Positions 7,729-37,240 of a stretch of 64,000 nt of DNA are shown in pieces. The stretch lies in contig DASYUK010000375.1 in the NCBI GenBank assembly GCA_036001325.1, forward strand, positions 1,616 to 65,615. The letters run 5' to 3'. Below the pieces are notes generated by a model. That model was given only the letters and a program-made list of their open reading frames with translations, was not told where the DNA came from and made no database searches. Made by a program: the position numbers and the translations under genes. This DNA comes from Thermoanaerobaculia bacterium. GTDB lineage: Bacteria > Acidobacteriota > Thermoanaerobaculia > Gp7-AA8. The stretch's first letter is position 1. Every line of letters begins with the position of its first letter.

Positions 7729-7897
7729 GAAGAGTTCTCCCTGCGATCACGAGGCTGTTCACGTTCGGCAGCCCGGCCATCTGAGTAAGTCCAGATCCGT
7801 CGGCTTTGCGCCCCTGCGTCGCCGCAGGTTTGCCCTTATCGTGTGATCGCTTGTTGTAGGACCTTCAACGTGGCGCCGGGCTGTTTTATTCGTAGTT

Positions 7898-9615: not shown

Positions 9616-11174
9616 GGTCTCCTCCAGCGACGGCCGTCGCGCTCGATCAAGGCATCCGCCGCTTCCGGTCCCCACGTCCCCGCCGGATAGAAGTGCGGCG
9701 GCTTCGGATCTTCGGCCCAGCATTTCAGCAGCGGATCGAGCCACGCCCACGCCGTCTCCACTTCGTCGCGACGCGCGAACAGCGTCGAATCGCCGAGCAT
9801 CGTCTCGAGCAGCAGCCGTTCGTAAGCTTCCGGCGGCTCAGCACCGAACGAGGTCGCGTAGCGAAACTCCATCGTCACCGGCGCGGTCCGCACCGTCGGT
9901 CCCGGGAGCTTCGAATCGAACTTCAGCGAGATTCCTTCGTCGGGCTGAATGCGAATCGCCAGCACATTCGAGGGCATCTTCACTTTGCTGAACAGCGGAT
10001 ACGGTGCGGGGCGGAAGTGGATGGAGATATCGGTGACACGCTTGGATAGCCGCTTGCCGGCGCGGATGTAGAACGGCACGTCGGCCCATCGCCAGTTGTC
10101 GATGAAGACTTTCATCGCCGCGAACGTCTCCACTCGCGAGTTTGGATCGACGTGCGGCTCCTTCCGATAAGCGATCGCCGGCGAGCCGAGCACGGAGCCA
10201 TCCGTGTATTGGCCGCGCACCGCGAGCTGCTCCTCGCGGCCGGGTGGAAACTCGCGCATCGCGCGCAACACCTTCACCTTCTCGTCGCGGACCGCGTTGG
10301 CCTCGTACTCCACCGGCGGCTCCATCGCGACCAGAGAGACGAGTTGCAGCATGTGGTTCTGGATGATGTCGCGACTGATGCCGGCGGTCTCGAAATACCC
10401 GCCGCGCTTCTCGATGCCGATCGACTCCGCGACCGTGAACTGCACATGGTCGATATATTGACGATTCCAGAACGGCTCGAAGATTCCGTTCCCGAATCGC
10501 AGCACCAGCAGGTTCTGAACCGTTTCTTTGCCGAGGTAGTGGTCGATGCGGAAGACCTGGCGTTCCCGAAAGGTGCTGACGGCGACGCGATTCAACTCGC
10601 GCGCTGATGGCAGATCGTGGCCAAACGGTTTCTCGATGATGACGCGCGTGTACGGCCCGCCGCGCTCCGGATCGGTGACCATCCTCTGCCCGCCCAGGAT
10701 CTCGCAGATCGTCGGGAAGAACTGCGGCGGAACCGCGAAGTAGTAAATGCGCCGTCCGCCCGTGCCACGCGTGCGATCGCACTCTTCGAGCTTCTTGCGC
10801 AATCGCGTGTAGGCGTCGAGTTCACCGAACTCGCCCTGCACGTAAAAGAGACCCTTCGCGAAGTTCTGCCAGATCGCCTCATCGACCGGCTTCGTGCGCG
10901 CGAACTTGTCGCACGCTTCGCGCATGGCCATGCGAAAGGCGTCGTCCGAGTACTCCGGCCGCGCGAAGCCGATGATCGTCTGCCCGGCCGGAAGAAGCCC
11001 GTCGTGTGCGAGCGAATACAGGCCGGGGATCAGCTTCCGCTGTGTCAAATCGCCGGACGCGCCGAAGATGACCAGACAGGAGGCGTCGGGAACCCGTTCC
11101 TGATCCAGACCCTCTCGCAGAGGATTGGCCTCGAGGACGGGCGCCAGCGTCGCCATGAGTCCTTGATTATCCAT
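9612..11174 (-). CDS. zwf: Glucose-6-phosphate 1-dehydrogenase
   Basis: Signature RIDHYLGKE present (VFRIDHYLGKETVQNLLVLRFGN). N-terminal NADP-binding region GASGDL. 520 aa. Confidence 0.9.
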   Translation of the reverse strand: MDNQGLMATLAPVLEANPLREGLDQERVPDASCLVIFGASGDLTQRKLIPGLYSLAHDGLLPAGQTIIGFARPEYSDDAFRMAMREACDKFARTKPVDEAIWQNFAKGLFYVQGEFGELDAYTRLRKKLEECDRTRGTGGRRIYYFAVPPQFFPTICEILGGQRMVTDPERGGPYTRVIIEKPFGHDLPSARELNRVAVSTFRERQVFRIDHYLGKETVQNLLVLRFGNGIFEPFWNRQYIDHVQFTVAESIGIEKRGGYFETAGISRDIIQNHMLQLVSLVAMEPPVEYEANAVRDEKVKVLRAMREFPPGREEQLAVRGQYTDGSVLGSPAIAYRKEPHVDPNSRVETFAAMKVFIDNWRWADVPFYIRAGKRLSKRVTDISIHFRPAPYPLFSKVKMPSNVLAIRIQPDEGISLKFDSKLPGPTVRTAPVTMEFRYATSFGAEPPEAYERLLLETMLGDSTLFARRDEVETAWAWLDPLLKCWAEDPKPPHFYPAGTWGPEAADALIERDGRRWRRP

Positions 11175-11246
11175 GGGGTCAGGTCTTCAATTTTCAGTTT
11201 TTTCCACTTGCGGTAGGAAAAAACTGAAAATTGAAGACCTGACCCC
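11175..11246. repeat. Perfect 31-bp inverted repeat with a 10-nt loop, AT-rich, directly abutting the zwf start codon in the zwf/thiolase divergent intergenic region
   Basis: GGGGTCAGGTCTTCAATTTTCAGTTTTTTCC-acttgcggta-GGAAAAAACTGAAAATTGAAGACCTGACCCC; the arms are exact reverse complements (checked base by base). It generates mirrored peptides in track ORFs 11045..11251 and 11173..11421. Confidence 0.9.
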
Positions 11247-11269
11247 AGCAACTGCTAAAGTTCGCGGTC

Positions 11270-17621: not shown

Positions 17622-18278
17622 GTGCGACTGCAATTCGGTGACTTCACCTTCGACGGCGGCGGATGCCAGGTACTCAAGAACGGCGATGCCGTCGCACTGT
17701 CGCCGAAGGCATTCCAACTTCTGGCGTTGCTCCTCGAGGAACGCGGACATGTGATTTCGAAGAAGGAATTGCTGGAACGACTATGGCCCGACACCGTTGT
17801 CGCCGAGGAAAATCTCAAGGCGCGCATTCGCGAGATTCGGACGGCTCTCGGCGATAGTGGACGAGAAGGGAAATGGATCCGAACCGCGCGTGGCTTTGGC
17901 TACGCGTTTCAAGGTGAAGTGTGGGATGAAGATATTTCTCGTCGTACAGCGGCACCCCAGCAGATGTACTGGCTTCACTACGGTGAGCGCGGCTTTGCGG
18001 TCGGGCGAGGTGAAACGTATGTCGGTCGCGATCCGCGATGCGGAATATGGATCGATGATGCGAGCGTGTCGCGACGGCATGCACGTATCGTCGTCTCTTC
18101 CGAACGCGTGACACTCGAGGACCTCGGCAGCAAGAACGGGACAGCGGTCGGCACAATCTCAATATTGGGGACGACCGAGCTGTTTGACGGAGATCGAATT
18201 CGCATCGGCTCAGTGAAGCTCACGTTTCGTTCGGCCGGCGTCGATCAATCGACGGAGAGTTCGCCAAACAACTCGTAG
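17622..18278 (+). CDS. DNA-binding protein with an N-terminal OmpR/PhoB-type winged-helix domain and a C-terminal FHA (phosphothreonine-binding) domain
   Basis: wHTH: LSPKAFQLLALLLEERGHVISKKELLERLWPD...IRTARGFGYAF. FHA: FAVGRGETYVGRDPRCGIWIDDASVSRRHARI...GSKNGTAVG...DGDRIRIGSVKLTF (the G-R, S-xx-H and N-G motifs). GTG start. Confidence 0.75.
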   Translation: MRLQFGDFTFDGGGCQVLKNGDAVALSPKAFQLLALLLEERGHVISKKELLERLWPDTVVAEENLKARIREIRTALGDSGREGKWIRTARGFGYAFQGEVWDEDISRRTAAPQQMYWLHYGERGFAVGRGETYVGRDPRCGIWIDDASVSRRHARIVVSSERVTLEDLGSKNGTAVGTISILGTTELFDGDRIRIGSVKLTFRSAGVDQSTESSPNNS

Positions 18279-18533: not shown

Positions 18534-18552
18534 CTCGGTCGTGGGTCGTAGG

Positions 18553-18593
18553 TCGTGGGGGCCGCATCGCAAGAACGCCGAAGCCCCCACGAC
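18553..18593 (+). terminator. GC-rich hairpin (11-bp stem) just downstream of the thiolase-fragment stop codon; relic terminator-like structure
   Basis: GTCGTGGGGGC-cgcatcgcaagaacgccgaa-GCCCCCACGAC; no U-tract follows. Confidence 0.35.
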
Positions 18594-18631
18594 AACGACC
18601 GGCGACCAGCGACCTCTATAATCGCGAGCGA

Positions 18632-19996
18632 ATGACGCTCATCCTCCTCGCCCTTTTCCTGTTCGCCGCCGTCCCACCCCTCGACAACCCCACTCGGCAG
18701 CTCGTCCGCGACATCTACCGGCAGCTCATCGAGATCAATACGACCGAGTCGGTCGGCAACATGACCACTGCGGCCGAGGCGATGGCGGTGCGATTGCGCG
18801 CCGCCGGCTTTCCTGAATCGGATGTGAAGATGCTGGCACCCGAGCCCCGGCACGGCAATCTCGTGGCGCGACTGCGAGGCACCGGCGCGAAGAAGCCGAT
18901 CCTGCTTCTCGCGCACCTCGATGTCGTCGAAGCGCGGCGCGAAGACTGGTCGACCGATCCCTTCAAGCTCGTCGAGCAGGACGGCTGGTTCTACGGCCGC
19001 GGCACCGGCGATGACAAGGCGATGGCCGCGATCTGGATCGCCACATTGATTCGTTTGAAGCAGGAACACTTCGTTCCGAATCGCGACATCATCGTGGCGC
19101 TCACCGCTGATGAAGAGACCGGCGATTACAACGGCGTGAGCTGGCTCGTCGACAACCATCGCAACCTCATCGACGCCGCGCTGGCGATCAATGAGGGCGG
19201 TGGCGGCGCGATCAAGGAAGGGAAGTATCTCTACAACGGCGTCGGCGCGAGCGAGAAGGTCTATGTGACCTTGGCGCTCACCGTCCGCAACAAGGGCGGA
19301 CACAGCTCCGTGCCGCAAAAGCCAAACGCGATCTATCAGCTCGCGGCCGGTCTTACGCGTCTCGTTGATTATGAATTCCCCGTGAAGCTGAATGAAGTCA
19401 CGCGTGCGTACTTCCGCCGCCTCGCCGACATCGAAGGCGGAGCGTTGGCGGCCGACATGCGCGCGCTCGCCGATCACGAAGACCCATCGGCCGCTGCACG
19501 CGTGGCGCAGACGCCGGCGTACAACGCGCGCATGCGCACGACGTGCGTGGCGACGCGTCTCGATGCCGGTCACGCCGACAATGCGCTGCCGCAGATGGCG
19601 AAAGCGACCGTCAACTGCCGGGTGTTGCCTGGCGAAGATCCGGAAGAAGTTCGCAAGACGGTCGTGCGCGTGCTCAATGATCCGGCGATCGAAGTCGTGT
19701 GGATCGACAAGGCGAAGCCGAGTGTGCCGTCACCGCTCTCGCCGGAGATCATGAAGCCGGTCGAGCAGTTGACGAGCGAATTCTGGCCGGGCGTGCCGGT
19801 GCTGCCGCTGATGGCCTCCGGCGCGAGCGACAGCCTCTATGTGCGAAATGCCGGCATTCCGACGTACGGCATCTCGGCGATGTTCGGCGACATCAATGAG
19901 AATCGCGCGCACGGCAAGGACGAGCGCGTCGGCGTGAAGCAGTTCTACGATTCCGCGCAGTTCCTTTACGCACTGGTCAAAAGACTCTCGTCGTGA
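18632..19996 (+). CDS. M20 family metallopeptidase (carboxypeptidase G2/succinyl-diaminopimelate-desuccinylase-like), secreted
   Basis: Signal peptide MTLILLALFLFAAV. M20 motifs HLDVV, GTGDDKA, TADEETG. The track ORF begins upstream at 18419 inside the thiolase remnant; start taken at the ATG preceding the signal peptide. Confidence 0.8.
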   Translation: MTLILLALFLFAAVPPLDNPTRQLVRDIYRQLIEINTTESVGNMTTAAEAMAVRLRAAGFPESDVKMLAPEPRHGNLVARLRGTGAKKPILLLAHLDVVEARREDWSTDPFKLVEQDGWFYGRGTGDDKAMAAIWIATLIRLKQEHFVPNRDIIVALTADEETGDYNGVSWLVDNHRNLIDAALAINEGGGGAIKEGKYLYNGVGASEKVYVTLALTVRNKGGHSSVPQKPNAIYQLAAGLTRLVDYEFPVKLNEVTRAYFRRLADIEGGALAADMRALADHEDPSAAARVAQTPAYNARMRTTCVATRLDAGHADNALPQMAKATVNCRVLPGEDPEEVRKTVVRVLNDPAIEVVWIDKAKPSVPSPLSPEIMKPVEQLTSEFWPGVPVLPLMASGASDSLYVRNAGIPTYGISAMFGDINENRAHGKDERVGVKQFYDSAQFLYALVKRLSS

Positions 19997-30900: not shown

Positions 30901-31130
30901 GGAGGGATACTCGGAGATCCCCGCCTGAGCCGTGTGGAGGATTCTCACTCGAACCTGTAAACAAACAGGTGGGCGTCCTACTGGGGCCGTTTTGGCTACC
31001 TTCTGAGGTCCCTCGCTACGCTTGGGACGAAGGCGTGCACGCGGCCCGCAGACGCGGACACCCGAAGCAAGAATTACGGTTCAAGCGTTAGATCGTTCAT
31101 CACGCACTCTGCAGGGATTCTCCGAAAATC
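30901..31130 (-). ncRNA. ssrS: Probable 6S RNA (ssrS) downstream of zapA and upstream of rny
   Basis: The minus-strand transcript has a 5' segment UUCGGAGAAUCCCUGC (complement of plus 31111-31126) and a 3' segment GGGAUCUCCGAG (complement of plus about 30905-30916) that can pair as a closing stem. E. coli 6S ends ...CUCGGAGAUUCCCU and lies downstream of zapA (ygfE). Boundaries are approximate. Confidence 0.5.
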
Positions 31131-31149: not shown

Positions 31150-31434
31150 TCAAGTGATTACCTTGTTGAGCCTCTCCGATATTTCCTCCGTTTTCTCGAT
31201 CCATGTCGCCGCGCTCTGGCGCTGCTTCCGGAACCGCGAAAACTCGTCGGCGATATTGAGAGCGGCCAGGATAGCGATTTTCATCGGATCGACCGTGGCG
31301 ACTTCCGCCGCGACCTCTCTCATCCTGGCGTCGACAAACCGCGCAAGCTCCGTTAAATAGTTCGGGTCTCCTTCTCCCCGGACGTTATACGTTTGACCAA
31401 AGATCTCGACCTCGGTCGAATCGTACTTTTCCAT
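31150..31434 (-). CDS. zapA: Cell division protein ZapA
   Basis: 94-aa protein MEKYDSTEVEIFGQTYNVRGEGDPNYLTELARFVDARMREV...: ZapA length and pattern (short beta N-terminus, then coiled coil). Confidence 0.7.
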   Translation of the reverse strand: MEKYDSTEVEIFGQTYNVRGEGDPNYLTELARFVDARMREVAAEVATVDPMKIAILAALNIADEFSRFRKQRQSAATWIEKTEEISERLNKVIT

Positions 31435-31459
31435 GGAAAAGAGACCTGATGTCGCGGCG

Positions 31460-31525
31460 GATTATACCCGTTAGTCGTTAGTCCCTAGTCCTTAGTCGCT
31501 GGTCCCGACTAACGACTAAGGACCA
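31460..31525. promoter_or_regulatory. Heptamer-repeat imperfect palindrome (4 x NTTAGTC, 9-nt spacer, 4 x GACYAAS) in the zapA/imuA divergent intergenic region; candidate operator for the imuA-imuB-dnaE2 cassette
   Basis: GTTAGTC GTTAGTC CCTAGTC CTTAGTC gctggtccc GACTAAC GACTAAG GACCAAG GACTAAG. 23 of 28 arm positions are complementary. It is AT-richer than its surroundings and lies about 70 nt upstream of the imuA start. Confidence 0.5.
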
Positions 31526-31593
31526 AGGACTAAGGTCCGAACATTGCTTTACGCCTGATTACCGCCTATTGTTAGGCGTGCAGGCTCCCCACG

Positions 31594-32415
31594 ATGACTG
31601 CACAGGCTCGACGTTTCCTCTCTCAGTTTCAGCTCCTCGATCTCAGGCCGAGTCGACCGAAACCCACTCTTGTCCCTCCTCTCCCACCTGTAGAGATTCA
31701 GCAGCGCGAGGCTGTCCGCAACCTTCGCGCGGCGCTCGATCCGGCGATCGCGCGAAACGTCATCAGCGCGACCGAGCTGATTCGCGCACTCGAGAAGACG
31801 CGCCGCGAAGACTTCCTTCCTACGGCGATCGACGCGCTCGACGCGCTCCTCGGCGGCGGATTGCGGCGCGGAAAAGTCGTCGAGCTCGTATCGCGGCGCG
31901 CGGTGGGACGATTCTCGATCGTGATGTCGACGCTCGCCGCCGCCACCTCCATCGGCGAGGCGGCAGCGTTGATTGACGTCAGCGATCACTTCGATCCGCA
32001 AATCGCCGACGTCGCCGGCGTCGATCTGCGGCGCTTGCTATGGGTGCGGCCGAAGACGATGAAGCAAGCGGTCATGGCGGCGGAGATGATCACCGTCACC
32101 GGATTCCAGCTCGTCGTCCTCGATGCCGGACTGCATCCCGTGCGCGGTCGTCGCGCGCCTGACGCGGCATGGGTCCGTCTCGCGCGAGCCGCCGAGGCGC
32201 ACGGCGCTGCGATGCTTGTCTCGACGCCATATCCATTCACCGGCACGACCTCCGAAGCCGTGGTGCGCGGCGAGAAAGCGCGCGTGAAGTGGCTCGGCCA
32301 GGGAAAGTCGCCACGATTGCTCGTGGAAGTCACGACGAACTTCCGATTGGAGAAACACCGTCACATGAAGCCGGGAGCCCCCGCGACCTGCGACCTGCGA
32401 CCCGCGATCTCATGA
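31594..32415 (+). CDS. imuA: ImuA (RecA/SulA-like component of the SOS mutagenesis cassette)
   Basis: AIDALDALLGGGLRRGKVVELVSRRAVGRFSIVMSTLAAATSIGEAAALIDVSDHFDPQIADVAGVDLRRLLWVRP...QLVVLDAG matches the ImuA pattern. It is followed by imuB (ATGA overlap) and dnaE2. Confidence 0.7.
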   Translation: MTAQARRFLSQFQLLDLRPSRPKPTLVPPLPPVEIQQREAVRNLRAALDPAIARNVISATELIRALEKTRREDFLPTAIDALDALLGGGLRRGKVVELVSRRAVGRFSIVMSTLAAATSIGEAAALIDVSDHFDPQIADVAGVDLRRLLWVRPKTMKQAVMAAEMITVTGFQLVVLDAGLHPVRGRRAPDAAWVRLARAAEAHGAAMLVSTPYPFTGTTSEAVVRGEKARVKWLGQGKSPRLLVEVTTNFRLEKHRHMKPGAPATCDLRPAIS

Positions 32416-33899
32416 GCAGAATCGCCTGCTTCTACGTCCCCATGTTTCCGCTCGCAGCAAGACTGCGCAGCGAGCCGGAGCTGCTGCAGGAGGCGCTGGC
32501 GATCGTCGAAGGGAACGGCAACAACGCGCAGGTCGTCGCGGCGACGCGGCGCGCGCGAACGAAAGGCATTCGTGCCGGACACTCGCTCGCGCAGGCGCGT
32601 TCGATTCTCCCGAAGCTGATCGCCCGAGGACGTGATGGCGAGTGCGAGAGGACGGCGCAGGAGGCGCTGCTCGAAGTCGCGGAAACCTTCTCGCCGCGTC
32701 TCGAAGATGCGGGGGAAGGCGTCATCTACATCGATATCGCCGGAATGGAACGGCACTTCGATGACGAGCACGAGCTCGGCCGCGCGGCGATTCAATCGGC
32801 GGACAATATCGGATTGCCCGCGCGCGTCGGCGTCGCCGCGAGCAAGCTCGCGGCGCGCGTGGCCGCGGAGCTGCCGAAGTCACCGACGGTCGTCGAGCCG
32901 GGAAAGGAAGCGGAATTCCTCGCGCCACTGCCGCTGACGCGACTCGCGCCGGAGATCGATGCGGCGATGACGCTCCAACGATGGGGCATCACGTCGATCG
33001 GCGATCTCGCTCGTCTGCCGGAAAGCGAAATCGCCAGCCGGCTCGGCGAGACCGGACGCGATCTTCATTACGCGGCGCGGGGCATCGATCCCCGACCGCT
33101 GATCCCGCGCGCGCTGCCGCCGGAGTTTCGTGAAGGGATGGATCTGGAGTGGCCGCTCGTCGCGCTCGAGCCTTTCTTATTCATCGCCGGCGCCGCACTC
33201 GATCGACTGATGAAGCGAATGGAAGCGCAGGGATTCGCCTGCACTCGTCTCGAGGTGACGATGAATCTCGAGCCGGATGGATTTCATGCGCGCGCGATCG
33301 ATCTCCCCGCGCCGACGCGCGACGTGAAGACGATGCTGACGCTGATCCGCCTCGATCTGGAGAAGACGCCTCCCGGCGCGCCGGTCGTGGGATTCGTGAT
33401 CGTCGCCCATCCCGACCGCCCGCGCCGCGCGCAGTTGTCGCTGTTCGGCCCTTCGACGCTTTCGGCGGAGAAACTGGCCACCACAATCGCGCGCCTCGTC
33501 TCACTTCTCGGCGACGGCCGCATCGGGATGGCGACGACGGTCGATGGTCACCTTCCCGACCGCTATTCGATCGCCGATTACGCTCCCCCACCCCCACCCG
33601 ATGCGCGGCGAAAACCGGCGAAGAGTCGCGGACTGCTCGCCGTGCGCGTCTTCCGCCCACCCATCCCGGTGGAAGTGATCACACGCGAAGTCGACGGCGA
33701 GGTGCAGATCGAGCGCATCGAGGGGGAAGGCGAAATCGCGGGAACGGTTCGCATTTCATCCGGTCCGTGGCGCATCGAAGAAGGATGGTGGCGCGACGCG
33801 CCGGCGGCTCGGGAGTATTGGGACGTGGAGGTGGGAGCGAACGTGTATCGCGTGTATGAAACTTCCGGTGGTTGGGTCGTCGATGCGCGATACGACTGA
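32412..33899 (+). CDS. imuB: ImuB (inactive Y-family DNA polymerase-like protein)
   Basis: N-terminus MSRIACFYVPMFPLAARLRSEPELLQEALAIVEG...GIRAGHSLAQARSILPKL resembles the Y-family polymerase N-terminus but lacks the catalytic acidic residues. Sits between imuA and dnaE2. Confidence 0.8.
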   Translation: MSRIACFYVPMFPLAARLRSEPELLQEALAIVEGNGNNAQVVAATRRARTKGIRAGHSLAQARSILPKLIARGRDGECERTAQEALLEVAETFSPRLEDAGEGVIYIDIAGMERHFDDEHELGRAAIQSADNIGLPARVGVAASKLAARVAAELPKSPTVVEPGKEAEFLAPLPLTRLAPEIDAAMTLQRWGITSIGDLARLPESEIASRLGETGRDLHYAARGIDPRPLIPRALPPEFREGMDLEWPLVALEPFLFIAGAALDRLMKRMEAQGFACTRLEVTMNLEPDGFHARAIDLPAPTRDVKTMLTLIRLDLEKTPPGAPVVGFVIVAHPDRPRRAQLSLFGPSTLSAEKLATTIARLVSLLGDGRIGMATTVDGHLPDRYSIADYAPPPPPDARRKPAKSRGLLAVRVFRPPIPVEVITREVDGEVQIERIEGEGEIAGTVRISSGPWRIEEGWWRDAPAAREYWDVEVGANVYRVYETSGGWVVDARYD

Positions 33900-33913
33900 G
33901 GCTTTAGAAGCGA

Positions 33914-33956
33914 AATGTTGAATGTTCAACATTCAACATTGAACATTCAACATTCC
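33914..33956. promoter_or_regulatory. AT-rich heptamer-repeat palindromic array directly upstream of dnaE2 (candidate operator)
   Basis: AATGTTG AATGTTC AACATTC AACATTG AACATTC AACATTC C. The first 27 nt, AATGTTGAATGTTCAACATTCAACATT, form a perfect palindrome around a single central base. Confidence 0.5.
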
Positions 33957-33967
33957 TCGTTCTCCTT

Positions 33968-36900
33968 ATGTCGCACGGCAGAAAACCGACAAGAAACCTC
34001 GACGCTCTCCAGATCACCTACGCTGATCCGGCAGGGCACAAGGAGAAGGTCAAGAACCGTGTGACGAACGTTCCTCTCTCCCGCGAGTACGATCACATTC
34101 CCTTCGTTCCTGAGAAGTTCGGCGGGACGAAACCGAATGAGGAACCGGAGGAAAAGACTCCGAAACTCCGCAACCGTGCAACCGCGAAACGCCCCTACGC
34201 CGAGCTCCGCGCGGCAAGCGCGTTCTCCTTCCTCGACGGTGCTTCGCTGCCCGAAGACTTGATGTACCACGCCGCCGATAAGGATCTGCCGGCGATGGCT
34301 CTCGTCGACACGAATGGTGTGTACGGCGCTCCTCGGTTCTATTCGGCAGCGAAGAAAACAGGGGTCAAGGCGCTCGTCGGAAGCGAACTGGTTCTCGAGA
34401 CCGACCACCGCTTCACAGTCCTCGTCGAAAACCGCACCGGCTATAAAAACCTGTGCAAGCTCGTCACGGCTGGAGCGGCCGGGCGCGAGAAAGGGAAAGC
34501 GCGCTTCAACTGGGGATTGATCGAGCAGTACAACGAAGGTCTGCACTGCCTCACGCGTGCCGATGACGAGACCATCAACAAAATCGCCGGCATTTTCAAA
34601 AACAGAACGCACCTCGAGTTGCAGCGACATTTCAATCGCGACGAAGAGCGTCACAACATCCGCCTGGTCGATCTCGCGCGGCGTCTGAAGCTGCCGATCG
34701 TCGCGACGAACGGCGTCCGCTACGCCCGCGCACAGGATAAGGAGCTGCACGACGTCCTCACGTGCATCCGCGAGACGACACACGTCGACAAAGCGGGCCG
34801 CCTCCTGGGCGTGAATCGGGAGCGCTACGTCAAGACCGCCGATGAGATGTGCCGCCTGTTCGCCGATCTGCCGGAAGCGATCGATGGCGCCTGGTCGCTC
34901 GCCAACACGCTCGACTTCACGCTCGCCGACCTCGGCTACCAGTTCCCTGACTATCCGCTGCCGCCGGGAGAGACTACAACATCGTTTCTGCGCAAGATCG
35001 CCTGGAACTCGGCAAAGTCGCGTTTCCGTCCGCTCACGGCGAGAGCGCAGTCGCAGATCGAGAAAGAGCTGAACATGATCGAGAAGCTCGATCTGGCCGG
35101 CTACTTCCTCATCGTCTGGGACATCGTTCAGTTCTGCAATCGCGAAAAGATCATCGTGCAGGGCCGCGGCTCGGCGGCCAACAGCGCCGTCTGCTACGCC
35201 CTCGGCATCACCGCGGTCGATCCGGTGAAGATGGAGCTGCTCTTCGAGCGCTTCCTCTCCGAAGAGCGCGGAGAGTGGCCGGACATCGATCTCGATCTCC
35301 CCTCCGGCGATCAGCGCGAGAAAGTCATCCAGCACGTCTACAAAACGTACGGCGTGCACGCCGCGGCGATGACCGCGAACGTCATCACGTATCGCGATCG
35401 CTCCGCGGCGCGCGAAGTTGGCAAAGCGCTCGGCTATTCGCTCGAGCAGGCCGACAAACTCTCGAAATGCGTCTCGACCTGGAACTTCGGCGAGATCCGC
35501 GAAGCGATGGAGAACCTGCCGGGTGAGCTCGAGAAAACGGGATTCGATCCCGCTGATCTCCGCGTACAACACTTCATGCGCCTCTACATGCACATCCAGA
35601 ATCTGCCGCGACATCTCGGCCAGCACTCCGGCGGCATGGTCATGGCGAAAGGACGGCTCGACGAAGTCGTGCCGCTCGAGCCGGCATCGATGCCCGGCCG
35701 CGTCGTCATTCAGTGGGACAAGGACGACTGTGCCGATCTCGGCCTCATCAAAGTCGACCTCCTCGGCCTCGGCATGCTGGCGGCGATCGAAGAGGCACTG
35801 CCGCTCATCCGCGACAACGAAGGAAAAGAAGTCGATCTCGCCCATCTGCCTCAGAACGATCCGCTCGTTTACAAGATGCTGAACGAGGCTGACACGATCG
35901 GCATGTTCCAGGTGGAGAGCCGCGCGCAGATGGCTTCACTGCCGAGGAATGCGCCGAAGAAGTTCTACGACATCGTCGTGCAGGTGGCGATCATCCGTCC
36001 CGGCCCGATTGTCGGCGGCATGATCCGTCCGTTCTTCGATCGGCGTCAGGGGCGCGCGCCGGTCGAGTATCCGCACCCGTGCCTCGAGCCGATTCTCAAG
36101 CGCACGCTCGGCGTACCGCTGTTCCAGGAGCAGCTTCTCCGTATCGCGATGGTCGCGGCCAATTTTACCGGCGGCGAAGCCGAAGAGCTGCGAAGAGCGA
36201 TGGGATTCAAGAGGTCGATGGAGCGGATGCACGAGATCGAAGGACGGCTGCGCGCGGGGATGACTACGAACGGCATCGATGCGAAAGCGCAGGATCAGAT
36301 CGTCAAGTCGATCACGTCGTTCGCGCTCTACGGCTTTCCCGAATCGCACGCGGCGAGCTTCGCGCTGATCGCGTATGCGAGCGCGTACATCAAAGCGCGA
36401 CATCCGGCGGCTTTTTATGTCTCGCTGCTGAACGCGTGGCCGATGGGTTTCTATCATCCGGCGACGCTCGTCAAAGATGCGCAGCGGCATGACACCGAGG
36501 TGCTTCCGATCGACATGAATCATTCTGGTTGGAAGTGCCGTTGGGAAAACGGCGGCGTACGTCTCGGACTGCGATTCGTTAAAGGGCTGCGCGAAGCGAC
36601 GGCAAAGAAGATCGAAGCGAATCAGCCATTCCAATCGACGGAAGATCTCGCCTATCGGTGCAAGCTGCGCGACGATCAGCTCACGAAGCTCGCCTACGCC
36701 GGGGCACTGAGCTCACTCGGACTCACGAGACGAGGGGCGTTGTGGCAGGCGTCGAAAGCGGCAAAGCCCGCGGGCGAACTCTTCGAAGGACGCGCCGCCG
36801 AGGGCGGCGGCGCTCCACTGAAGGAGATGTCAGAGATCCAGAACACCATGGCTGACTACCACGCGATGGAGCTCACGACGGGGCCGCATCTCGTCGAGCA

Positions 36901-37240
36901 CTTCCGCGCTGAGCTCATGAGTCAGAAGATCCTCTCCGCCGCGGACCTCGCGCGCATTCCAACCGGTCGCCGCGTCACGACCGCAGGAGCAGTGATCGTC
37001 CGCCAGCGCCCGGGCACCGCAAAAGGATTCGTGTTCCTCACCCTCGAAGATGAAACCGGTCTCTCGCAGGCCATCGTCAGTCCGAAACTTTTCAGCGAGC
37101 AGCGTTCGACGATCCTCGGCCATTCGGGCCTGATCGTCGAAGGAATCGTGCAGAACACCGATGGGCAGTGTTCCGTCAAAGCGGAGCGTTTCTGGCCCTT
37201 GCAGGGACTCGAGGACATTCGCAGTCACGACTTCCACTAG
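33968..37240 (+). CDS. dnaE2: Error-prone DNA polymerase DnaE2 (ImuC), DNA polymerase III alpha-like
   Basis: PHP domain beginning YAELRAASAFSFLDGAS, and pol III alpha core motifs. 1090 aa as called. The first ~60 residues are Lys-rich, lower-GC and precede the PHP domain, so the true start may be internal (for example a GTG near 34056 with an AAGGAGAAGG upstream). Confidence 0.85.
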   Translation: MSHGRKPTRNLDALQITYADPAGHKEKVKNRVTNVPLSREYDHIPFVPEKFGGTKPNEEPEEKTPKLRNRATAKRPYAELRAASAFSFLDGASLPEDLMYHAADKDLPAMALVDTNGVYGAPRFYSAAKKTGVKALVGSELVLETDHRFTVLVENRTGYKNLCKLVTAGAAGREKGKARFNWGLIEQYNEGLHCLTRADDETINKIAGIFKNRTHLELQRHFNRDEERHNIRLVDLARRLKLPIVATNGVRYARAQDKELHDVLTCIRETTHVDKAGRLLGVNRERYVKTADEMCRLFADLPEAIDGAWSLANTLDFTLADLGYQFPDYPLPPGETTTSFLRKIAWNSAKSRFRPLTARAQSQIEKELNMIEKLDLAGYFLIVWDIVQFCNREKIIVQGRGSAANSAVCYALGITAVDPVKMELLFERFLSEERGEWPDIDLDLPSGDQREKVIQHVYKTYGVHAAAMTANVITYRDRSAAREVGKALGYSLEQADKLSKCVSTWNFGEIREAMENLPGELEKTGFDPADLRVQHFMRLYMHIQNLPRHLGQHSGGMVMAKGRLDEVVPLEPASMPGRVVIQWDKDDCADLGLIKVDLLGLGMLAAIEEALPLIRDNEGKEVDLAHLPQNDPLVYKMLNEADTIGMFQVESRAQMASLPRNAPKKFYDIVVQVAIIRPGPIVGGMIRPFFDRRQGRAPVEYPHPCLEPILKRTLGVPLFQEQLLRIAMVAANFTGGEAEELRRAMGFKRSMERMHEIEGRLRAGMTTNGIDAKAQDQIVKSITSFALYGFPESHAASFALIAYASAYIKARHPAAFYVSLLNAWPMGFYHPATLVKDAQRHDTEVLPIDMNHSGWKCRWENGGVRLGLRFVKGLREATAKKIEANQPFQSTEDLAYRCKLRDDQLTKLAYAGALSSLGLTRRGALWQASKAAKPAGELFEGRAAEGGGAPLKEMSEIQNTMADYHAMELTTGPHLVEHFRAELMSQKILSAADLARIPTGRRVTTAGAVIVRQRPGTAKGFVFLTLEDETGLSQAIVSPKLFSEQRSTILGHSGLIVEGIVQNTDGQCSVKAERFWPLQGLEDIRSHDFH

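Follow-up and report, generated by a model that had tools for sequence, protein, structure and literature searches.

We suggest that a 42-bp array of heptamer repeats, lying between imuB and dnaE2 in a 64,000-nucleotide stretch of DNA from a Thermoanaerobaculia bacterium (contig DASYUK010000375.1; hereafter the window, meaning the whole stretch at its full length), probably represents the inverted heptamer-repeat arms of a cassette that resembles the intervening sequences (IVSs) of 23S rRNA, here with no gene between the arms. In relatives, the same spacer carries such arms around an open reading frame (ORF) for a four-helix-bundle (4HB) protein, and sequence comparison demonstrates that the window array is homologous, by its position, its unit and its flank, with the arms of the cassettes that we term type A. 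Because the window array has no ORF between its arms while relatives carry one, we regard it as a gene-less derivative and not as a full member. An earlier note, made from the letters of the window, had read the array as a possible LexA-type operator giving dnaE2 a regulation of its own, or alternatively as part of a long dnaE2 leader; the first of these proposals is not supported by what follows.

The array and its spacer

The array (33914-33955) reads AATGTTG AATGTTC AACATTC AACATTG AACATTC AACATTC, that is, two units in one orientation followed by four inverted ones. Its parts, and the spacer that contains it, are as follows.

33914-33927, forward strand: left arm, two heptamer units (AATGTTG AATGTTC) of GAATGTT type, purine-rich in the sense strand
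33928-33955, forward strand: right arm, four inverted units (AACATTC AACATTG AACATTC AACATTC)
33914-33954, forward strand: RNA hairpin predicted by RNA folding and an inverted-repeat search, with a perfect 16-bp stem (33914-33929 with 33939-33954) and a 9-nt loop
33900-33967, forward strand: imuB-dnaE2 intercistronic spacer of 68 nt, containing the array

The earlier note described this region well. Its sequence, 7-bp period and switch of orientation are borne out by direct reading and by Tandem Repeats Finder, which reports at 33925-33955 a period of 7, 4.4 copies, 91% matches and a score of 55. The perfect palindrome of 27 nt that it pointed out (33914-33940) is likewise present, with arms of 13 nt (33914-33926 and 33928-33940), 100% complementary, around 1 nt; a second register pairs perfect 16-nt arms, 33914-33929 with 33939-33954, across a loop of 9 nt. 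The array is AT-rich as claimed, with 12 of its 42 nucleotides G or C (29%) against 59-65% across the window and 62% for the genome. It begins 14 nt after imuB, the stop codon of which is at 33897-33899, and ends 12 nt before the ATG of dnaE2, in keeping with its placement just upstream of that gene. The dnaE2 start codon (ATG 33968) can be taken as fixed, since the N-terminal extension that follows from it (MSHGRKPTRNLDAL) is conserved among relatives (L001, L054, L076 and L077, loci being designated here by L numbers).

Period-7 stretches (28 nt with at least 90% self-match) occur twice in the window and in none of 60 first-order Markov simulations, and a perfect 16-nt inverted repeat within 60 nt would be expected about 1e-3 times per 64 kb, by an arithmetic estimate that assumes uniform composition. 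Inverted repeats as a whole number 18 in the window against 11.6 in simulations, a count that includes overlapping arms and is of little informative value. The predicted RNA fold of 33900-33975 has an energy of -25.4 kcal/mol (z = -6.1), and none of 200 shuffled sequences was as stable. All five matches to GAATGTTGAATGTT (at most 2 mismatches; 64-kb window searched) fall within the array, and the GAATGTT array is single-copy in the window; in copy number, over these 64 kb, it is unlike a dispersed repeat of the repetitive extragenic palindromic (REP) or miniature inverted-repeat transposable element (MITE) type.

The array is not an assembly artefact, since three independent Joint Genome Institute (JGI) metagenome assemblies, which sample the same population, carry the identical sequence, copy number included. 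The same identity bears on the idea of a phase-variable simple-sequence repeat that would tune dnaE2 through its copy number, as in hmw1 of Haemophilus influenzae. A heptamer repeat does stand directly upstream of a start codon, and in hmw1 a heptamer hairpin goes together with RNase III; however, with only 2+4 units and a copy number that is constant among the three assemblies, we find this explanation scarcely credible.

A stable predicted hairpin between two genes might also be taken for an intrinsic terminator, or for an attenuator, by which transcription running on from imuB into dnaE2 would be limited. Against this, no U-tract follows the hairpin (CCUCGUUCUCCUUAUG), the stem is AU-rich (25% GC), the terminator scan makes no call here and predicts no promoter of dnaE2's own, and the corresponding arms of relatives surround a gene of the same orientation, with dnaE2 directly after them. 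We consider a terminator very unlikely. The leader proposed as an alternative in the earlier note is compatible with the position of the array inside the intercistronic spacer and with its predicted hairpin.

The same spacer in relatives

The evidence that carries our proposal comes from the imuB-dnaE2 spacers of 57 genome loci. The ORF found in the spacers of relatives, about 120 aa in length, matches TIGR02436 ("four helix bundle protein", 8e-26) and PF05635 ("23S rRNA-intervening sequence protein", 1.5e-20), and its closest solved structure is 2RLD. A hidden Markov model (HMM) of this 4HB family yields 27 matches in 582 kb of genome loci, all of them within the imuB-dnaE2 spacer and on the operon strand; with E allowed up to 10, neither the window nor the remainder of the genome loci yields additional copies. 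By our tally, the gene is present in 21 of the 38 relatives that have a comparable spacer. The 64-kb window has no 4HB match with the HMM, and its array leaves only 0-9 nt between the arms.

The spacer genes fall into two types. Type A genes lie between two inverted heptamer arrays, with (GAATnnn)n to the left and the complement to the right; these form stems of 25-51 nt with 88-100% complementarity, in which the ends of the gene are embedded. In many of these cassettes the start codon of the ORF lies inside or just past the last left unit, and at several loci the stop codon lies inside the first right unit, often as the TAA of TTCTTAA. The arms stand about 350-450 nt apart around the gene, and the predicted fold of the full L016 element is a long-range stem of about 40 bp that encloses the ORF. 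Type B genes directly follow the imuB stop codon, have no flanking arms and are succeeded by a different hairpin; they occur at L018, L020, L025, L026, L028, L029, L031, L032, L033, L036, L061, L062 and L075, and in one Thermoanaerobaculia sub-lineage they form a conserved fourth gene of the imuA-imuB-dnaE2 operon. Several loci hold type B and type A in tandem, and the window has neither.

GAATGTT is the most frequent left-arm unit flanking 4HB genes (9 of 65 elements), and arms of this type surround type A genes at L002, L016, L019, L028, L029, L031 and L044, as well as at the metagenomic loci L059-L062 and L075. The L029 cassette has a right arm (CATTCAACATTGAACATTCAACATT) identical to window positions 33930-33954, the L031 cassette has one nearly identical to the window right arm, and the right end of the L016 element (AACATTCCTCGT) is the same as the end of the window array. 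Other arm units in the same spacer are AAATGCA, GAATGCA, AAATTTC, GAATTGG, GAATGAA/GAACGCA and GAATTCA. The window is also not alone in lacking the gene: further gene-less versions occur in this spacer at L054 and, with the type B hairpin, at L017, L022 and L042.

A gene may have been lost from between the arms, or it may never have been inserted. We favour loss over a hairpin that came first, because cassettes span imuB identities of 57-92% and selection on the 4HB genes is purifying (dN/dS 0.21 for type A, median 0.05 for type B), although such comparisons of sequence make loss the favoured course and do not prove it.

The spacer is an insertion hot spot in its own right, with L002, L005, L010 and L048 among the loci concerned, and in some cases 2-5.7 kb of inserted genes. 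The spacer of L021 (7696-8140) holds an ORF that looks, by eye, like an IS200/RAYT-like tyrosine transposase, with other palindromic repeats after it; the palindromes that flank it are not heptamer arrays. The spacer of L043 (7561-7890) is filled by a very long (GTGAAGA)n, nested in two further pairs of inverted heptamer arrays, with no gene.

Arm properties and a possible fate in RNA

Arm statistics were drawn from 65 distinct elements. Left and right arms co-vary: the consensus unit of a left arm and the reverse complement of the right-arm unit differ by 0.52 positions when both belong to one element, and by 2.52 when they come from different elements. Purines make up 72% of left arms and A or T 69%, and an RAA triplet is found in 63 of the 65 units, whereas shuffled units average 36.5 and never exceed 46. 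Within arrays, 4-6% of units depart from the consensus at positions 2-4 of the unit (A-A-T), and 14-21% at positions 1 and 5-7. The heptamer period carries a conserved core plus base-paired structure. Arrays of period 7 number 115, against 35, 35 and 12 for periods 5, 6 and 8. Among the 197 short hairpins counted over 924 kb, the arms of 55 show this period.

We posit that the window array would be transcribed within a polycistronic imuA-imuB-dnaE2 mRNA from the promoter at 31544-31572 (see below), and that the transcript would fold, 12 nt ahead of the dnaE2 start codon, into an AU-rich hairpin of 16 bp. This hairpin may be a neutral relic, or it may serve as an intercistronic processing or stability element. 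The candidate enzyme at the stem would be RNase III, if one may argue from the comparable stems in the Coxiella IVS and in the H. influenzae hmw1 5'-untranslated region (5'-UTR).

Several points weigh against reading the array as the arms of an IVS-like cassette. Among the relatives with data, the closest is L077, the imuB of which is 92% identical at the C-terminus, and its arms are of GAATTCA and not GAATGTT; the arms have turned over or been replaced, and simple vertical descent is blurred. Sense-strand G·U mismatches number 40 and A·C mismatches 34 in 65 cassette stems (p = 0.56), with no RNA-specific excess, and the complementarity of the arms could therefore be a DNA-level property or a by-product of the way in which arrays are generated. 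The 16-bp AU-rich stem is short for a classical RNase III substrate, and the co-transcription and processing of the array are steps that we infer.

In a different explanation, the array is a selfish or slippage-made palindromic repeat of the DNA, comparable to REP, MITE or Rickettsia palindromic elements (RPE), and has no RNA-level or regulatory role; complementarity would be a by-product of heptamer-array formation and homogenisation. Besides the absence of a G·U over A·C bias, this explanation draws on the in-frame heptamer hairpins inside the imuB coding sequence of relatives and on the insertions in the imuB-dnaE2 spacer, such as the L021 ORF. On the other hand, the GAATGTT array is single-copy in the window, hairpin units differ from one another with no dispersed identical family, and the RAA core together with the shared orientation with host genes suggests constraint beyond palindromy. 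We judge such a DNA-level repeat to be unlikely; we note, too, that the explanation overlaps with the relic half of our own.

The LexA question and the imuA promoter

In favour of an operator for LexA or another repressor, giving dnaE2 its own damage-inducible promoter, one may cite that the array is a perfect DNA palindrome with one GTTC and one GAAC, and that imuAB-dnaE2 cassettes are SOS-regulated in many bacteria. The half-sites named in the earlier note do exist (GTTC at 33924, GAAC at 33941), but they stand in the order GTTC-N13-GAAC and not GAAC-N4-GTTC. A motif search was run with six LexA patterns (GAAC-N4-GTTC, TGTTC-N4-GAACA, GTTC-N7-GTTC, CTGT-N8-ACAG, TTAC-N3-GTAA and a cyanobacterial-type pattern), and none matches at the array; these are published patterns, and the Thermoanaerobaculia may have a novel motif of their own. 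A literature search found no LexA motif for Acidobacteria. With E. coli LexA as the tblastn query, lexA is absent from the window and from the Thermoanaerobaculia loci, and is present only in the distant L049.

A promoter and terminator scan of 31300-34200 found nothing at either of the two heptamer arrays in that interval, with no sigma-70-like site, and the start codon of dnaE2 is 12 nt away. The unit is also not conserved in relatives: it varies at orthologous sites (GAATGTT, AAATGCA, GAATTCA, GAATTGG, AAATTTC, GAATGAA) while arm complementarity is retained. Because variation of the unit with maintenance of the pairing is the opposite of how an operator behaves, we regard the array as not operator-like, and presumably not as the operator of any transcription factor. 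Orthologous spacers, moreover, have no conserved sequence and hold their arms hundreds of nucleotides apart around a gene, and a strongly conserved operon promoter/operator is located elsewhere. A LexA-type operator and a separate SOS regulation of dnaE2 are accordingly most improbable.

The conserved site lies upstream of imuA, in the divergent intergenic region that also holds the second heptamer hairpin.

31544-31572, forward strand: imuA operon promoter/operator, with a -35-like TTGCTT, a 17-nt spacer (TACGCCTGATTACCGCC) and a -10-like TATTGT
31469-31535, no strand assigned: second heptamer hairpin, the arms of which are of TTAGTCC type; it stands upstream of the promoter, between the divergent zapA and imuA (z = -3.75)

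The promoter region upstream of imuA is nearly invariant in about 45 loci (consensus TTGACTTACGCCTnATTACCGCCTAAGTT), where it takes the form TTGACT-TACGCCTnATTACCGCC-TAAGTT, a -35/-10 pair around a conserved spacer of 17 nt, and is partly palindromic (ACTTA...TAAGT). In the window, the pattern TTACGCC-N3-TTACCGCC is unique, with 0.03 matches expected. On this sequence evidence 31544-31572 is a candidate operator of the mutagenesis cassette. We see no separate dnaE2 SOS operator at the array, and control of the cassette is to be sought at 31544-31572.

The earlier note had also drawn attention to the fact that two arrays bracket imuAB. The positions are as described, yet the units are unrelated (GAATGTT and TTAGTCC). 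Because of this, and because heptamer hairpins are common in the lineage (the 55 of 197 short hairpins above), the bracketing need not mean anything. Relatives have heptamer hairpins at the zapA/imuA site too, with quite different units (for example L025, L028 and L030).

Relation to known systems

The nearest parallel is the ORF-bearing IVS of 23S rRNA, known among others from Coxiella burnetii and Leptospira (PMC4990558). The Coxiella IVS contains an S23p ORF, with two to three GACAGAT heptamers just upstream of it, and the inverted repeats at its ends pair as a stem of 28 bp; RNase III cleavage has been mapped inside, at the start of the first repeat (PMC4990558). The cassettes of the window's relatives share with it the terminal inverted repeats around a PF05635/S23p ORF, and the window array shares a perfect stem, here of 16 bp, made of tandem heptamers. 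Unlike the Coxiella IVS, the window array lies in a protein-coding operon and not in helix 25 or 45 of 23S rRNA, has no ORF, and is built on GAATGTT and not GACAGAT; and whereas RNase III cleavage has been mapped in Coxiella, the array is known from its sequence. With two defining features failing (ORF and rRNA location), the array is to be set apart from the ORF-bearing 23S rRNA IVSs. IVS hairpins without a gene do occur in other bacteria.

A functional precedent is found in the hmw1 5'-UTR of H. influenzae, where (ATCTTTC)n forms one arm of a hairpin and RNase III cleavage raises expression (PMC12721329). Here, too, a heptanucleotide tandem repeat just upstream of a gene acts as a hairpin arm, but the second arm is a G-rich region and not an inverted copy of the repeat, the system serves phase variation with at least 10 units, and a 4HB gene plays no part in it.

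Heptamer repeats as such are not new. Cyanobacteria have the short tandemly repeated repetitive (STRR) sequences, heptanucleotide repeats reportedly treated by Mazel et al. in 1990. STRRs have been described as direct repeats without known function, and Nostoc is a genus that has them. Like the arms studied here, they are intergenic tandem 7-nt units in several sequence families, and a 4HB gene of N. punctiforme is flanked by inverted AAGTCGG. Other bacterial heptamer repeats include TAACTGA in Beggiatoaceae (PMC4679880) and those of Geobacter (PMC2700814). In literature of incomplete coverage, we found no report in which STRRs pair as inverted arrays or stand on either side of a 4HB gene.

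We would further distinguish the array from two other kinds of palindromic DNA. LexA SOS boxes of imuA-imuB-dnaE2 cassettes are likewise palindromes near a mutagenesis cassette, but the array lies between cistrons and not at a promoter, matches no motif and is not conserved. Palindromic insertion elements that enter genes and transcripts include RPE in Rickettsia and Correia/NEMIS in Neisseria, and Correia hairpins are RNase III targets. These resemble the present hairpins in lying between cistrons and, in the window's relatives, also in-frame in coding sequence; they differ in being families of near-identical copies, whereas here each hairpin has its own unit and only the period of 7 is shared, and cassette arms have just the RAA core in common besides that period.

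A literature search of incomplete coverage did not find 4HB/S23p genes with heptamer inverted repeats outside rRNA, and returned only the Coxiella IVS paper. A survey of Y-family polymerases makes no mention of a 4HB gene beside imuB.

The cassette beyond the mutagenesis operon

A metagenome scan with the 4HB alignment gave 80 loci, with 76 4HB genes testable for arms. Inverted flanking arms scoring at least 16 are present around 56 of the 76, while shuffled controls reach at most 14, and 7 is the best period in 53 of these 56. Only 13 of the 80 loci have imu genes nearby (67 have none); the neighbours of the metagenomic cassettes are unrelated genes, mostly co-oriented. One cassette lies between pdxA and an rRNA adenine dimethylase gene, another between truB and a release-factor gene, another between nitrilase-family hydrolase and aminotransferase genes, and yet another between the genes for RhuM and a type I restriction R subunit. 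The cassette starts at a median of 35 nt past the upstream stop codon. Gene-less AT-rich GAAnnnn hairpins adjoin cassettes in L065, L071, L093, L096, L097, L124 and L134. Rfam, at gathering thresholds and over the window and 14 cassette loci, has no family at any heptamer hairpin and gives no rRNA context.

Among annotated plasmids, Nostoc accounts for 16 of the 31 records with a 4HB match. The gene stands between inverted heptamer arrays in Nostoc punctiforme (AAGTCGG), in Bernardetia (GATTAGT), Chlorohelix (GAAGGAT/GAATTAT) and Treponema saccharophilum (GAAAGTG), and the Anabaena cylindrica copy has weaker arms in the opposite orientation. The arm-gene-arm architecture is general for the 4HB family across several phyla. 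The 4HB genes of plasmids pANACY.01 of A. cylindrica (L141) and pNPUN01 of N. punctiforme (L142) lie between cas2 and cas1 and beside tnsA and xisH/xisI.

A wider reading

We also put forward, tentatively and with more doubt than conviction, that the 4HB gene and its inverted heptamer arrays constitute one widespread and undescribed element, of which 23S rRNA IVSs would be the best-known members. The element would colonise short intercistronic spacers of operons, in the orientation of the host genes, in at least six phyla (Acidobacteriota, Cyanobacteriota, Bacteroidota, Chloroflexota and Spirochaetota in our own data, and Pseudomonadota from the Coxiella paper, PMC4990558), and some of the STRR heptamers of cyanobacteria would be arms of it. 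A ring-forming 4HB protein would read the (RAA-N4)n of the left arm, much as TRAP reads spaced triplets; such a ring would explain the period of 7, the conservation of RAA and nothing else, and arms of about 4-7 units. The arm-less type B gene (dN/dS 0.05) would have become the fixed fourth gene of the imuA-imuB-dnaE2 operon in Thermoanaerobaculia, in a role that may recall that of the related Avd, partner of the error-prone reverse transcriptase in diversity-generating retroelements, and the window array would be a footprint of the 4HB element.

For the window itself, the result is that a false regulatory lead has been removed, and the importance of this work lies less in the 42-bp array than in the general architecture of the cassette. 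The hypothesis, if true, is that of a small gene inside a heptamer-repeat stem, inserted in operons and processed by RNase III, and an RAA core every 7 nt would then point to a repeat-reading protein. It may unite ORF-bearing 23S rRNA IVSs, the abundant genes annotated as "four helix bundle protein" with no function, and the excess of heptanucleotide repeats in bacteria, STRRs included. A 4HB gene fixed in the mutasome operon of a major soil lineage is, moreover, a lead for the biology of ImuA, ImuB and DnaE2.

The operon and other features of the window

The genes of the operon in which the array lies are as follows.

31594-32415, forward strand: imuA, RecA-like (Pfam RecA, 8.5e-12); its stop codon overlaps the imuB start codon (ATGA)
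32412-33899, forward strand: imuB, an inactive Y-family polymerase with an IMS domain (Pfam); start set by alignment with relatives
33968-37240, forward strand: dnaE2, with PHP, Pol III alpha, finger, HhH and OB domains (Pfam)

The best match of the window imuB is 82% identical, in soil metagenome-assembled genomes (MAGs) of Thermoanaerobaculia (Acidobacteriota). Divergent genes upstream of imuA are zapA, rny and ymdB (Pfam). Matches to Rfam in the window are a 6S RNA directly downstream of zapA (30914-31120, reverse strand), a c-di-GMP-I riboswitch (7763-7843, reverse strand), a tRNA (51099-51172, reverse strand) and, at the end of the window, domains D1-D4 of a group II intron (63782-63951, forward strand).

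Heptamers recur inside the operon. The final codons of the window imuA, just before the imuB start, form a direct array of GCGACCT (3.6 copies, 32383-32407). At L034 a similar array at the imuA/imuB junction has an inverted partner about 355 nt downstream within imuB, and at L132 an entire 4HB cassette is placed between imuA and imuB. The imuB coding sequence of relatives contains in-frame, GC-rich heptamer hairpin insertions with units such as GGGGAGT, GTCGGGA and TCAGGCC (L001 6348-6431; L002 6350-6433; L025 6358-6451 and 7439-7469; L044 and others), which sit at two loop positions and are translated, for example, as WGVGSGS...PPTPHSP; their behaviour is like that of Rickettsia palindromic elements. 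The imuB genes of the window and of L013 are without them.

Two further hairpins lie elsewhere in the window. At 18535-18614, a heptamer hairpin of three GGTCGTG units and three CGACCnn units (-58.7 kcal/mol, z = -6.7), the inner stem of which is GC-rich, stands between a gene for an FHA/OmpR-type regulator (17622-18278) and one for an M20 peptidase, the true start of which is likely the ATG at 18633. At 11174-11247, a perfect inverted repeat of 32 nt around a 10-nt loop (z = -11.2), only loosely 7-periodic, stands between the divergent zwf (G6PD, reverse strand) and a thiolase gene, with one arm abutting the zwf start codon.

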